Below are positions 10,293-15,118 of a stretch of 19,155 nt of DNA, piece after piece. How positions within the stretch are numbered: position 1 is the first letter of the stretch; each line of letters starts with the position of its first letter. A model generated the notes under the pieces. It was not told the DNA's origin and made no database searches. It saw only the letters and a list, made by a program, of their open reading frames with translations. The position numbers and the translations under genes are program-made. The DNA is from Armatimonadia bacterium (lineage in GTDB: Bacteria > Armatimonadota > Zipacnadia > Zipacnadales > UBA11051): contig JBDKRC010000285.1 in the NCBI GenBank assembly GCA_039683575.1, forward strand, positions 1 to 19,155, in the 5' to 3' direction.

Positions 10293-10637
10293 CTACTCGT
10301 CGACGTCCTTGTGGCACTTGCTGCACACCCGCACGCCCTTGCCTTCACTCGTCCGCCGCCGCGTCACTCGCGTCGGCGCGTCGCAGTTCGGGCAGACCAG
10401 CATCACGTTCGATACGTGGATCGGACCGGGCTGCGTCACGATCCCCGCCTGGCGCATCTGCTGGCTCTGCCGCACGGCCTTCTTGATCAGGTTGATCCCC
10501 TCTACCACCACACGCTGATCATCAGGGCGTACTTCCAGAACCTTACCGCGGCGTACCCGGCCCTTGAACGAGCGGTCCTTACCCGCGATGATGAGCACTT
10601 CGTCTCCGGCCTTGATATTCTGCTTCCGCTTCGGCAT
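10293..10637 (-). CDS. rplX: 50S ribosomal protein uL24
   Basis: KOW motif GDEVLIIAGKD, VVVEGIN, PIHVSNV. Confidence 0.97.
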   Translation of the reverse strand: MPKRKQNIKAGDEVLIIAGKDRSFKGRVRRGKVLEVRPDDQRVVVEGINLIKKAVRQSQQMRQAGIVTQPGPIHVSNVMLVCPNCDAPTRVTRRRTSEGKGVRVCSKCHKDVDE

Positions 10638-10682
10638 TGTTATCGCTCCAACTATCCTGATCCTGATCCCGGCGCGGCCAAC

Positions 10683-11051
10683 CTATACTACCTCAGGTGC
10701 CAGCGAGACGATCTTCATGTATTCCCGCTCGCGCAGCTCGCGGGCAACGGGCCCGAACACGCGCGTCGCGCGGGGGTTCTTCTGGTCGTCGATGATGACA
10801 GCGGCGTTGTCGTCGAAGATGATCTGCGTGCCGTCGGGACGCCGCGTCTTCTTCCTGGTCCGCACCACAACCGCCTTGATAACCGTGCCCTTGGGAATCG
10901 GGCTCGAAGACGTTACGGACTTGGTCGAGGCGATGATCTGGTCACCGAGGCCGGCATACCGGTGGTAGCCCCGGCCCACGACCCTGATCATGCCGATCTC
11001 CTGCACACCCGAGTTGTCTGCAACCTTCAGTCTTGACTCTGTCTGTATCAT
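10683..11051 (-). CDS. rplN: 50S ribosomal protein uL14
   Basis: [43 protein letters not shown]. Confidence 0.98.
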
Positions 11052-11116
11052 TGCCTGCTACCTCTAGCGATCTGCCTGCTTCTCAACTCTCCGCAGGGCC
11101 ACCGACCCCACCCCGC

Positions 11117-13204
11117 CTAATCCTCCGCCGCCTCGCGAGCCTTCCGTTCCGCCACAATCCCCTCCGCCAGATGCGACGGCACTTCCTGGTAATGCGAGAA
11201 CTCCATCGTGTAGCTCGCCGCGCCCTGAGACAGTGACCGCAGGTCGGCTGCATACCGCGCCATCTCCGCCAGCGGCACCGAAGCCTTCACTACCACCATG
11301 CCCCCGCCAATTGGCTCGGTCCCTTGGATCTGGCCGCGCCGCCCGGACATGTCACTCATGATATCGCCCATGACGGTCTCGGACACGGTGATCGATGCCA
11401 CCATGATCGGCTCGAGCAATATCGGGTTCGCCTGCTGCAAAGCATTCCTGACCGCGATGCCACCGGCCATACGGAAGGCCTGCTCAGAGCTATCCACCGG
11501 GTGGGAGCTGCCATCGTCCAGGATGACCCGGACGCCAACCACCGGTGCCCCGGCCAGGATGCCCTTCTTGAGCCCGTCCTGCACGCCCTTCTCAACCGCC
11601 GGGATGAAGTTCGTGGGCACCGAGCCACCCTTGACTTCATTTACAAACTCATTCTCATCAACACCAGGCGGCTGCGGCTCCATGCGTACCCACACATCAC
11701 CAAACTGTCCACGACCGCCGGTCTGCTTCTTGTGCCGCCCCTGCACTCGCGTGGACTTGGAGATCGTCTCGCGGTACGGGATCAGCGGGTCGCTCAGATT
11801 GACTTTGACATCAAACCGGTTCGCCAGCCGCTCGGCCAGGATATCAAGATGTAGCGCGCCCATGCCCGATACGATCAGTTCGTTCGTCTCCGCGCTGCGC
11901 TCGTAGTGCAGACCCGCGTCCTCTTCGGCCACACGCGCCAGCGACATCCCGAGCTTGTCTTCGTCCGCGCGGCTCGCAGCGGTCATGGCTGCCGAGTGCA
12001 TCGGCAACGGCTGCGGCGGCTGCGGGTAGACAATCTGTGCCTTCGGATCGCAGAGCGTATCACCGGTGTGTGCGTTCTCCAGCTTCGACACCGCGCCAAG
12101 GTCTCCAGCGACGAGCTCGCTCACGTTCTGCGACTGCTTGCCCTGCATGGTCGCCAGGCCGGAGAGCTTTTCCTTGCTGTTCCGCCGGCTGTTGACCACT
12201 GCCATGTCGCTCATGGCCTTCCCCGACGCTATGCGTAGCAGGTTGATTCGCCCCACGTAGGGGTCGCTCATGGTCTTGAAAATGAACGCTGAGAACGTTT
12301 CGCTAGCGCTGCAGGACCGCGTCTCTTCATCCTCGCTACCGGGCTTTGTGCCCGTCCAGGCCGCACGTGCGTTGGGTGCCGGGCAACTGCTCTTCATGAA
12401 CTCCAGCACACCGCCCAGGCCCTTGGCCACGTATGCATCGGAGCACAGTACCGGCACCATCAGCCCCTGCGCCACCGCCTTCTGCAGGCCCTGCGCCAAC
12501 TCCGCAGCGCTCAACTCGCCAGCTTCCAGATACTTCTCGGTCAATTCATCATCGGTCGCGGCGACCGCGTCTACCAGCGCCTCACGGGCCGCGGACACCT
12601 CGTCCGCCATGTCACCGGGGACCTCCCCGGCCTTGATGTCCTTGCCCTCGCCCGTATAGGCCTTCATTGCTACCAGATCTACCACGCCGGCGAAACTGCC
12701 ACCGCTGCCGATCGGCAACTGTACCGCGACCGCTTCGCAGTCTTTGAGCATTGTGTTCATGCTCTCGACTGCACTGGCGAAATCGGCGTGCTCTTTGGTC
12801 ATCTTGGCGACGAGGCCGACCACCGGAACGCCCATTTCACGTGCTGTGTTGTATACCTTGATCGTGTGGATCTCCACACCCGACTGCGCGTCCACTACCA
12901 TCAGCGCTGCGTCCCCCACCTTCAGCGCGTAAGGCACGTCTGCGAAGAATTCCGCGTATCCGGGGGTATCAACGATATTGATCTTCACGCCGGCGTATTC
13001 GCAGTGGCACAGGGCCGGGGTGATCGTGATCTTACGGCTTACTTCTTCTGGCTCAAAGTCTGCCGTCGAGGTTCCGGCATCAACGCGCCCCAGCCGGTCA
13101 ATTGCTCCGGTGGCGAACAGCAACCCCTCAACCAGGGTAGTCTTGCCCGACCCACGGTGACCGATCAGTACCAGGTTTCGTATTTGCTCCGTAGAAAAGG
13201 CCAC
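11117..13204 (-). CDS. Elongation factor G paralogue (EF-G II / FusA2-type), about 695 aa
   Basis: Five-domain EF-G layout: GHRGSGKTT, EEVSRKITI, DTPGY, GMGALHL, PYRETI, KKQTGGRGQFG, GSSHPVDSS, LLEPIM, RRG, LRSLSQG. The G1 GH..GKT and DTPGY forms match the EF-G II class rather than canonical FusA (AHIDAGKT, DTPGH). GTG start at 13204 with GGAGG SD. Confidence 0.93.
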   Translation of the reverse strand: MAFSTEQIRNLVLIGHRGSGKTTLVEGLLFATGAIDRLGRVDAGTSTADFEPEEVSRKITITPALCHCEYAGVKINIVDTPGYAEFFADVPYALKVGDAALMVVDAQSGVEIHTIKVYNTAREMGVPVVGLVAKMTKEHADFASAVESMNTMLKDCEAVAVQLPIGSGGSFAGVVDLVAMKAYTGEGKDIKAGEVPGDMADEVSAAREALVDAVAATDDELTEKYLEAGELSAAELAQGLQKAVAQGLMVPVLCSDAYVAKGLGGVLEFMKSSCPAPNARAAWTGTKPGSEDEETRSCSASETFSAFIFKTMSDPYVGRINLLRIASGKAMSDMAVVNSRRNSKEKLSGLATMQGKQSQNVSELVAGDLGAVSKLENAHTGDTLCDPKAQIVYPQPPQPLPMHSAAMTAASRADEDKLGMSLARVAEEDAGLHYERSAETNELIVSGMGALHLDILAERLANRFDVKVNLSDPLIPYRETISKSTRVQGRHKKQTGGRGQFGDVWVRMEPQPPGVDENEFVNEVKGGSVPTNFIPAVEKGVQDGLKKGILAGAPVVGVRVILDDGSSHPVDSSEQAFRMAGGIAVRNALQQANPILLEPIMVASITVSETVMGDIMSDMSGRRGQIQGTEPIGGGMVVVKASVPLAEMARYAADLRSLSQGAASYTMEFSHYQEVPSHLAEGIVAERKAREAAED

Positions 13205-13269
13205 TCGGAATCCTCCAAGCCAAATACATGTCACGTAGTCTCAATTGCTGCTGGCTCGCGCCCAGATCC

Positions 13270-13530
13270 CTACCGCGCCCGCTCCACGATCTGCACTACA
13301 CGCCACGACTTGTCCTTACTCAGGGGCCGACACTCCGTGATGATCACGCGATCGCCCTGACGCGCCTCGTTCCCCTCGTCGTGCGCCTTGTACTTGCTGG
13401 TCCGGCGCAATACCCGGCCGTACAGCGGGTGAGGCGTCAGGCGCTGGACTGCGACCACAACGGTCTTGTCCATCTTGTCGCTGACTACCGTTCCCTCGAG
13501 GGTCCGCTTCTGAATCTGCTGGTCACTCAT
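13270..13530 (-). CDS. rpsQ: 30S ribosomal protein uS17
   Basis: [37 protein letters not shown]. Confidence 0.98.
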
Positions 13531-13531
13531 C

Positions 13532-13750
13532 TTAGATCAACCCTCGCTCAGCCTGGATCGTCCGGATCCGTGCGATTGCCTTGCGGTACTTGCGGACGCG
13601 CTTCGGATCCTCAACCTGCCCCGAAGCCAGTCGGAACCGCAGGTTAAACAGCCCCTCCTGGATGTGGCGCAGCCGCTCTTCGAGCTCTTCCGGCGACGCG
13701 TTGCGAACCTGCTCGACAAAATCGCGGGTGCTTTTGGCATTGTCAGGCAT
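13532..13750 (-). CDS. rpmC: 50S ribosomal protein uL29
   Basis: [12 protein letters not shown]...RKAIARIRT; position between rplP and rpsQ. Confidence 0.95.
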
Positions 13751-14165
13751 TCAGATCATCCTCCCGCGTGATAAATCGGCACTTGATGGGCAGTTTGTGC
13801 ATAGCCAGGCGGATGGCTTCCTTGGCCACTTCGTGCGGTACTCCACCCATTTCGAACATGATCCGGCCGGGCTTTACCACTGCGACGAAGTATTCCGGGG
13901 CTCCCTTGCCCTTACCCTGGCGGGTTTCCGCCGGCTTGCGGGTGACGGGCAGGTCCGGGAAGATCCGGATCCAGACTTTGCCGCCGCGCTGGGCGTAACG
14001 GGTCATGGCGACACGGGCTGACTCGATCTGGCGGCTCGTGATCCATGCTGGCTCCAAAGCCTGCAGGCCATACTCCCCAAAATCAAGGTTGCTGCCGCGA
14101 TAAGCCATGCCGCGCATGTTGCCACGGTGCGACTTGCGATGCTTTTGGCGCTTGGGCATCAACAT
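13743..14165 (-). CDS. rplP: 50S ribosomal protein uL16
   Basis: [37 protein letters not shown]. Confidence 0.98.
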
Positions 14166-14171
14166 CTCTAA

Positions 14172-15038
14172 CTACTCCTCTGTCTCGGCGGCGGGTGACT
14201 CGGTGTCCTCGTCACCCAGCGCGGCGATCAGCATGTCTTCTTCAGGTGCGGCCATCTCGACGCTTTCAATCTTCGCCGGGGCGGCATCCAACTGCGGGGC
14301 GACCGGGGCAACTGCCTGCGGTTCGACGGCCACCGCAGCCTCGGCTGCCGGAGCGACCTCAACTGCTTCCGCAACCGCGGGACCCTGAGGCTGCGATTCC
14401 TTCTTCGGGGGAAGGATGTCGCCGCGGTAGACCCATACCTTGACGCCGATGTGACCGTAGCCCGTCCGGGCCTCGGCGCGACCATATTCCACGTCAGCGC
14501 GCAGAGTGTGCAGTGGCACGCGCCCCTCGGGGCCAACGGACTCCGAACGTGCGATCTCGGCGCCGCCGAGGCGCCCGCTCACTGCGCAGCGGATACCGCC
14601 CGCTCCGAGCCGCATCGCCCGCTCTACCGCCTGCCGCATCGCGCGCCGGTAAGACACGCGACGCTCGATCTGCCGCGCGATGTTGTCGGCCACAAGCTGG
14701 GCATTGATATCCGGTTCCTTGGTCTCCTCGACGTTGACCCGAACCTTCTGCCCGATCATCTTCTCGAGCCGCTGGCGCAGCACGTCAACGTCACGCCCGC
14801 CCTTACCGATGATGATCCCGGGCTTCGCCGTCGAGATCGTTACCGTGACGGTGTCCGCCGCACGCTCGATGAAAATGTCCGAAATCGAAGCGTTCCGCTG
14901 GTTCTCGGCCACGAAGTTGCGCACGCGGATGTCCTCGATGAGTTGGTCGCGGTATCGCGGCCCCTCAGCGAACCACCGGCTGCGTGCCTCGCGGATCACG
15001 CCCAGTCTAAAACCGTATGGATGTACCTTCTGTCCCAT
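14172..15038 (-). CDS. rpsC: 30S ribosomal protein uS3 with long acidic C-terminal tail
   Basis: [54 protein letters not shown] 15038 with GGAG SD. Confidence 0.98.
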
Positions 15039-15118
15039 TAGTGGGTCACTCCGTACCTTCGTCTTTACGCGAACTTGCTTCTCCAACCCCGCTGGGAAGG
15101 CCCAGTGAAGCCCGTCCC

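Follow-up and report, generated by a model that had tools for sequence, protein, structure and literature searches.

An EF-G paralogue within a ribosomal-protein operon of Armatimonadota whose base-reading acid may have moved from G4 to G5

The contig JBDKRC010000285.1 of an uncultured Armatimonadia bacterium (GenBank assembly GCA_039683575.1), analysed here over its 19,155 nucleotides and called the window, carries between the genes of ribosomal proteins S17 and L14 a paralogue of elongation factor G (EF-G) in which the G4 motif reads AKMT and the G5 motif reads SDA. Textbooks attribute guanine specificity to the NKxD aspartate, which hydrogen-bonds guanine N1-H and N2-H2, and few users of this residue are as conserved as the translational GTPases. 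We found that a whole bacterial family maintains, under purifying selection, an EF-G paralogue without this aspartate and with a new acid fixed in the adjacent loop, and that the pairing of G4 loss with a G5 acid recurs in other lineages of the EFG II subfamily. We put at about one half the probability that the carboxylate which reads the base was transferred from G4 to G5, a reading of the sequence patterns under which the binding of a purine nucleoside triphosphate (NTP), probably GTP, would have been kept.

The gene occupies positions 11117-13204 of the minus strand, on which all motifs given below were read (695 amino acids plus stop in the list of open reading frames; the public gene call P0001 also has 695 amino acids). 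The phosphate half of a guanine-specific TRAFAC pocket (G1 GxxxxGK[ST], G2 Thr and G3 DxxG) is complete. The G1 P-loop reads GHRGSGKTT (G15-T23, 13136-13162) and is followed by Leu24; G20 and K21 are invariant in an alignment of 101 sequences. G2 in switch I reads RKITI (R57-I61, 13022-13036), Thr60 being the Mg-coordinating residue, and G3 reads DTPGY (D79-Y83, GAT ACC CCC GGA TAC, 12956-12970) with Tyr at the position of the catalytic His. Of the base half of such a pocket, which consists of the [NT]KxD Asp and the G5 Ser-Ala, the Lys and the Ala alone remain. G4 AKMT (A133 K134 M135 T136, GCC AAG ATG ACC, 12797-12808) retains the Lys and has Thr at the guanine-reading Asp position, and G5 SDAY (S255 D256 A257 Y258, TCC GAT GCA TAC, 12431-12442) places Asp256 (12437-12439) at the canonical Ser position. 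AKMT and SDA are the true G4 and G5 positions, since a HMMER alignment to Staphylococcus aureus EF-G pairs 'glvAKMTk' with 'vfvNKMDk' and 'pvlcSDAy.akg' with 'pvlcGTAfknkg'. The initial annotation of this DNA had reported the same five motif readings, had described P-loop and switch-I Thr as intact and had called His-to-Tyr at G3 ordinary for EFG II; we agree on all three points, as the codons of the minus strand give the same letters at the same places and His stands at G3 in only 6/147 EFG II representatives.

The proteins of the window's taxonomic order reveal how the two base-reading loops changed. On the tree of this order (148 rows; the 585-residue P0029 omitted) the window protein lies in clade A (31 rows), whose sister on a wider tree is clade B (22 rows, support 90), and the genome loci of both clades all belong to the window's family, f1. 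Position 4 of G4, the place of the guanine-reading Asp, reads T12 G7 N5 D4 A3 in clade A (2.15 bits, rank 19 of 290 G-domain columns) and S12 T5 R3 A2 in clade B (1.67 bits). At G5 position 3, the canonical Ser, clade A reads D29 E2 and clade B reads D22. The constraint is reversed among the other 94 order-level family members, which have D88 E5 N1 at G4 position 4 (0.38 bits; an acid in 93/94) and A35 S31 G11 D10 C4 N3 at G5 position 3 (2.12 bits). Thus, Asp or Glu holds the G5 Ser position in 53/53 proteins of clades A and B, the G4 acid is absent from 49 of these 53, and the G4 Lys is kept in all of them, as are P-loop and DxxG. Within clade A, Thr60 aligns with Thr or Ser in 30/31 proteins and the G3 Tyr is found in 31/31. 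The initial annotation had taken the G5 change, like that at G4, for a loss; it is instead a conserved gain, at a position that is variable elsewhere. Sorted by where they carry an acid, the unique rows fall into 82 with G4 only, 46 with G5 only, 14 with both and a single one with neither. Proteins with both acids combine, for example, NK[LI]D with ATDAR or SKMD with CCDG, and P0192 and P0245 are also of this kind. That rows with both acids far outnumber those with neither fits a path in which the G5 acid was gained first and the G4 acid was lost afterwards.

Beyond the order, a sample of the phylum contained 39 EFG II genes, of which 38 keep the G4 acid and none has an acid at G5. These numbers argue that the combined state is specific to family f1. 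L026 reads NKMD at G4 and AASAY at G5. Outside the phylum we counted 147 full-length proteins out of 149 best representatives (50% identity clusters) from a search of 1.84 billion proteins. The G4 acid is present in 140 of the 147, and a G5 acid accompanies 4/7 representatives without it vs 4/140 that keep it (Fisher p = 1.2e-4, uncorrected for phylogeny). The four with G4 loss and G5 Asp (P0190, P0194, P0214 and P0249) are separate lineages whose tree neighbours have no G5 Asp, and the state of P0190 is found in 15/15 members of its cluster. On a FastTree phylogeny of 180 EFG II proteins, which used 32 of 120 close homologues and omitted 2 of the 149 representatives as shorter than 640 amino acids, the G4 acid was lost in about eight lineages, and five of them carry the G5 Asp (clades A and B together, and the four just named).

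We propose that the acid to which the Watson-Crick edge of the purine donates hydrogen bonds would now be Asp256 at the G5 Ser position, in place of the G4 NKxD Asp. The G5 loop adjoins the G4 loop, and with a G5 Asp in place the G4 Asp may have become dispensable and drifted, to Thr in the window protein. A carboxylate at the Watson-Crick edge would prefer guanine, with its N1-H donor, over adenine, whose N1 is an acceptor, and it is on these chemical grounds that we rank retained GTP binding first among the possible outcomes. As the pocket is unaltered on its phosphate and Mg side (P-loop, switch-I Thr and DxxG), the protein is still expected to bind a purine NTP, most likely GTP. The tip of domain IV is intact as well, for which reason we expect the paralogue to work on the ribosome like EF-G. 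Two loops of this domain extend to the decoding centre. In the alignment of 101 sequences, loop I (HKKQTGGRGQFG, H491-G502, 11699-11734, minus strand) has Q494, G496, G497, G499 and Q500 invariant and K492 and K493 nearly so, and loop II (DGSSHPVDSS, D564-S573, 11486-11515, minus strand), with its conserved His568, has D564, G565, H568, V570, D571 and S572 invariant.

We infer the role of Asp256 as base-edge acceptor from the closeness of G5 Ser and G4 Asp in other proteins and from the use of alternative acids by other guanine binders. In AlphaFold3 models of Vibrio cholerae FeoB, bound to ADP or ATP, the G4 Asp and the G5 Ser are reported to hydrogen-bond at ~2.7 A (PMC11406355), and docking on Miro places the residues corresponding to Ras S145 and D119 jointly at the amino group of the base (PMC6321465). 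Moreover, many guanine binders without NKxD are described as employing another Asp or Glu (PMC11594714). For turnover, the Tyr that replaces the catalytic His, as it does in most EFG II proteins, leads us to expect slow hydrolysis or none. A preprint reports that His-to-Tyr nearly abolishes the GTPase activity of Mycobacterium EF-G1 and also that Thermus EF-G-2 has GTPase and translocation activity (bioRxiv 10.64898/2026.05.25.727771), so the G3 Tyr by itself does not decide the hydrolysis rate.

Several points weigh against a move of the base-reading acid. The contact between Asp256 and the base is one that we infer from sequence, and the order offers only one or two independent events. Three clade B proteins carry Arg at G4 position 4, which could neutralise the G5 Asp. 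Compensation is not obligatory either, given that L031 of the window's order, L096 of the phylum sample and, among the distant representatives, P0195, P0209 and the P0231 cluster have no acid at G4 or G5. A tree-aware test of the pairing was not significant (nine independent pairs: five same, one opposite and three without difference; sign test p = 0.22), so that the co-variation rests on the counts and on the contrast in conservation. Finally, SpoIVA is reported to have shifted from GTP to ATP along with a loss of constraint on its G4 Asp and the arrival of an acid in its G5 loop (PMC7952092).

This last case is the model for a re-specified pocket, one that would prefer ATP or take both purines and let the factor run on the more abundant nucleotide, an outcome that we consider possible but would not expect. 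In chemical terms, the N6 amino group of adenine could donate a hydrogen bond to the G5 Asp, and loss of the G4 Asp would lift the penalty on a base without N1-H and N2-H2. SpoIVA is described as a TRAFAC GTPase turned ATPase in which the G4 Asp is poorly constrained and a G5-loop acid was gained, and Era given NSxR at G4 and SAE at G5 is reported to have preferred ATP (PMC7952092); in FeoB, too, ATP use is reported to be tuned by G5 residues (PMC11406355). The free G4 position 4 and the fixed G5 Asp of clades A and B match this pattern, but not in detail: the window acid occupies the Ser position itself, two residues upstream of where SpoIVA has its acid, and the G4 Lys that SpoIVA lost is kept in 53/53 proteins. 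General chemistry also speaks for guanine, both through the carboxylate at the Watson-Crick edge and through the backbone NH reading O6, which remains. In addition, some proteins carry both acids and G4 has reverted to Asp within clade A, which looks like neutral redundancy rather than adaptive re-tuning. A bolder form of the idea is an EF-G-class ribosome factor, made with the ribosomal proteins, whose pocket would take ATP or any purine NTP and not GTP; by analogy it would imply the same G4/G5 route that led from Era to the ATPase SpoIVA, and we hold it to be rather doubtful.

We think it improbable that base recognition was simply relaxed or lost, with any NTP held through its phosphates or with nucleotide-free action, and with both motif changes as losses. 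Such a course would suit the rank of G4 position 4 among the most variable G-domain columns, the persistence of EFG II lineages without either acid (13/13 members of the P0231 cluster) and the existence of EFG II proteins that hydrolyse GTP little or not at all, as reported for Mycobacterium smegmatis EF-G2 (bioRxiv 10.64898/2026.05.25.727771) and for Bacteroides EF-G2. It does not suit Asp or Glu at G5 and Lys at G4 in 53/53 proteins each, which amounts to purifying selection on residues of the base pocket, nor the recurrence of the G5 acid with G4 loss in other lineages. Nor does the G domain evolve faster than the rest of the protein: Nei-Gojobori ratios of nonsynonymous to synonymous substitution (dN/dS) between the window and three relatives were 0.08-0.20 for the G domain, 0.07-0.20 for domains II-V and 0.10-0.20 overall, at dS values of 0.9-2.9 that are near saturation. 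A decaying or non-functional copy, or motifs created by sequencing error, can be given hardly any credence, as nothing beyond the unusual motifs speaks for either. All relatives keep an open frame, 41/41 genomes of the order have the paralogue and 30/30 loci have it in the same operon slot, its fold is predicted with confidence (see below), and the same letters occur in contigs of DNA runs and of RNA libraries. A contig of DNA run X1 (12109-12988), which may come from the source sample, spans the G4 and G5 motifs without a difference there. RNA-library contigs cover the G4 codons unchanged, that of X3 (12646-12856) having no difference over its length and that of X4 (12638-13075) a single one, at 12991; neither X3 nor X4 covers the G5 codons or several other parts of the gene. 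X3 and X4 cover parts of the paralogue and of its neighbours, but they stem from one sample of one study and, as RNA-library contigs, cannot prove transcription or co-transcription. The motif change is therefore neither private nor an error nor decay, and the alignment and dN/dS checks proposed with the initial annotation both come out on the side of a maintained gene. Of the interpretation offered there, the altered pocket holds, being lineage-wide and under selection; simple relaxation or GTP-independent action fits poorly with a G5 acid that is fixed and recurs in four further EFG II lineages. Taken together, the sequence evidence favours a pocket that was rebuilt, whether compensated or re-specified, rather than one that was simply relaxed.

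If Asp256 reads the base, the family would show that a specificity determinant can migrate from one loop to another in nature, and would caution against calling proteins 'non-GTP-binding' on G4 alone. A pocket that prefers ATP would revise what seems possible for ribosomal translocases, and if ATP or any purine NTP is used instead of GTP, a member of the translational GTPase family would have been freed of guanine nucleotides.

A single wastewater study contributed two DNA runs and two RNA libraries (X1-X4) whose contigs are 95-100% identical to the window where they match it between 10200 and 14200. Their differences are scattered single bases and one 2-base deletion at 11074, in an intergenic gap, which points to closely related strains in that wastewater study.

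The protein is an EFG II-class paralogue of EF-G, and a variant of that class set apart by AKMT at G4 and SDA at G5. Pfam models GTP_EFTU, EF-G_D2, EFG_III, EFG_IV and EFG_C all score above their cut-offs and give the five EF-G domains (G and II-V), and among NCBIfam models the EF-G subfamily NF009381 scores best (845 bits). Signatures of EFG II described by Margus, Remm and Tenson (2011, PMC3150367) are Gly16 and Leu25 in the P-loop (GHxxxGKTxL) and Lys471-Lys472 in loop I of domain IV; the window protein has GHRGSGKTTL and RHKKQTGG at these places. The same paper gives Ser in place of Thr in G2 for 76% of EFG II. The Thr of RKITI is thus weak evidence against membership, as Ser is far from universal in the subfamily, and clade A itself reads S16/T14/G1. 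Where the paper describes G4 NKxD and G5 gSAx as conserved in EFG II, the window protein departs from it. On the 180-protein tree it nevertheless lies inside a 177-row EFG II clade that contains no fusA-like rows (support 100). Like other EFG II genes, the window gene lies outside the str operon and its product has no catalytic His, and a canonical fusA is also present: in the same genome, on contig C190 beside rpsG and rpsL, a gene with AHIDAGKTT, RGITI, DTPGH, NKMD and GSA encodes a protein 38% identical to the paralogue. Other assignments were rejected. The canonical EF-G model TIGR00484 scored 642.8 bits vs a cut-off of 659.4, and the motifs and the locus (rpsQ/rplN, not the str operon) differ from those of canonical EF-G. 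Scores were also below the cut-offs for EF-G-like EF-G2 (NF009377, 576 vs 890), Bacteroides-type EF-G2 (NF058620, 548 vs 1000) and tetracycline ribosomal protection proteins (NF012153, 276 vs 775).

An AlphaFold2 model of the paralogue reached a mean predicted local distance difference test (pLDDT) score of 91.3, with 94-96 in the pocket region, and a predicted template modelling (TM) score of 0.84. A fold search with this model confirmed the EF-G fold, matching ribosome-bound EF-G and EF-G-2/EF-G2 structures at TM 0.87-0.91. The subfamily prototype is described as Thermus thermophilus EF-G-2 (1WDT/2DY1; PMC3150367), to which the paralogue is similar in structure (TM 0.87/0.92 against 1wdt) and in sequence (E = 2e-131). 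M. smegmatis EF-G2 (9k0z, TM 0.88) is likewise of EFG II type with Tyr for the catalytic His, and is reported to lack ribosome-dependent GTPase activity; unlike the window protein, it is described as a stress factor with an altered P-loop (bioRxiv 10.64898/2026.05.25.727771). Bacteroides thetaiotaomicron EF-G2 (8dmf, TM 0.91), another EF-G paralogue, reportedly translocates slowly without GTPase activity (bioRxiv 10.64898/2026.05.25.727771); the window protein does not belong to its family, as the NF058620 score given above shows. Outside translation, SpoIVA, the Era-derived ATPase of sporulating Firmicutes, is like the window protein in that TRAFAC G1-G3 are kept, the G4 Asp is unconstrained and a G5-loop acid was acquired, but it is described as a cytoskeletal ATPase that lost the G4 Lys and has its acid two residues after the G5 Ser (PMC7952092). 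NTP-promiscuous FeoB N-domains are comparable in that G4 and G5 residues are reported to set base preference jointly, with the G4 Asp touching the G5 Ser; they retain this Asp, however, and belong to an unrelated transporter (PMC11406355). We found no description of G4/G5 remodelling in translational GTPases in the open-access literature searched. G4 variants within EFG II may be listed in the supplement of Margus 2011 (Figure S7 and tables).

The operon setting of the gene distinguishes it further. Its start is likely the GTG at 13204; the open frame reaches a further GTG at 13234 (open reading frame 11117-13234), homologues start at the same residues as the 13204 product, and direct reading gives a Shine-Dalgarno-like GGAGGA 6 nt 5' of this codon (13211-13216, minus strand). 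A weak hairpin with three G-C pairs among its seven overlaps the Shine-Dalgarno sequence and the start codon (13203-13220, minus strand) and may mean nothing, as such sites are no commoner than in shuffled sequence. Upstream lie the genes of S3, L16, L29 and S17, the last of them rpsQ (13270-13530, minus strand; Pfam PF00366, E = 1e-33) 65 nt from the paralogue start. The downstream genes encode L14, L24, L5, S14, S8 and L6, with rplN for L14 (10683-11051, minus strand; PF00238, E = 1.5e-46) 65 nt past the stop. The paralogue is probably co-transcribed with the ribosomal proteins in the order S3-L16-L29-S17-[EF-G paralogue]-L14-L24-L5; a scan of 10600-13800 for promoters and terminators gave nothing above shuffle expectation. 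The arrangement L29-S17-paralogue-L14-L24 is the one kept at the 30 related loci of the window's order. Relatives bear the names Armatimonadota, Armatimonadia or Candidatus Zipacnadia. A second EF-G gene, of 34-40% identity, accompanies the paralogue in 39/41 genomes of the order and was not found in G003 and G027 (84-85% complete) among the 41 searched.

The phylum sample mentioned above comprised 40 loci from 40 genomes (L071-L110). The paralogue occupies the L5/S14 slot at 26 of them, the S17/L14 slot at nine and places outside the operon at four, and the remaining locus is canonical fusA. Across Armatimonadota the EFG II gene thus sits mainly in one of two slots of the ribosomal-protein operon, and the window's order uses S17/L14. 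This differs from 26 EFG II loci of other phyla, none of which has ribosomal-protein neighbours within up to 3 kb, and we found no description of an EF-G gene inside the Armatimonadota ribosomal-protein operon in the open-access literature searched. Placement within the operon argues for a factor made in step with ribosomes. In contrast, the EFG II proteins studied to date have been described as stress or starvation factors, and B. thetaiotaomicron EF-G2 is reportedly induced by carbon limitation.

A few further observations concern individual genes. L031 (G035:C300), from one genome of the window's order, appears to read NKLN at G4, beside a G5 of canonical type (CTAAT). An Asp-to-Asn change at G4, as in NKLN, shifts Ras and EF-Tu to xanthine nucleotides. 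In P0231 and its cluster (P0287-P0299, named Clostridia) G4 reads NGIN, with neither Lys nor Asp, and G5 reads GGVA[IV] in 13/13 members, a base pocket more fully degenerate than that of the window protein. The EFG II gene L103 (G050:C512), from the L5-S14 slot, has a P-loop without Lys (AHGGSGAT) next to canonical NKLD and GSA; the missing Lys may be genuine or an assembly error. Among the neighbours in the window, ribosomal protein S3 (14172-15086, minus strand; 304 amino acids) extends past its Pfam S3_C domain, which ends at residue 219, into a C-terminal tail that is some 80 residues long and rich in Ala, Pro, Glu and Val. Ribosomal protein L24 (10293-10637, minus strand) has four Cys in a CxxC...CxxC arrangement (CPNC...CSKC) near its C-terminus, which suggests a zinc ribbon.

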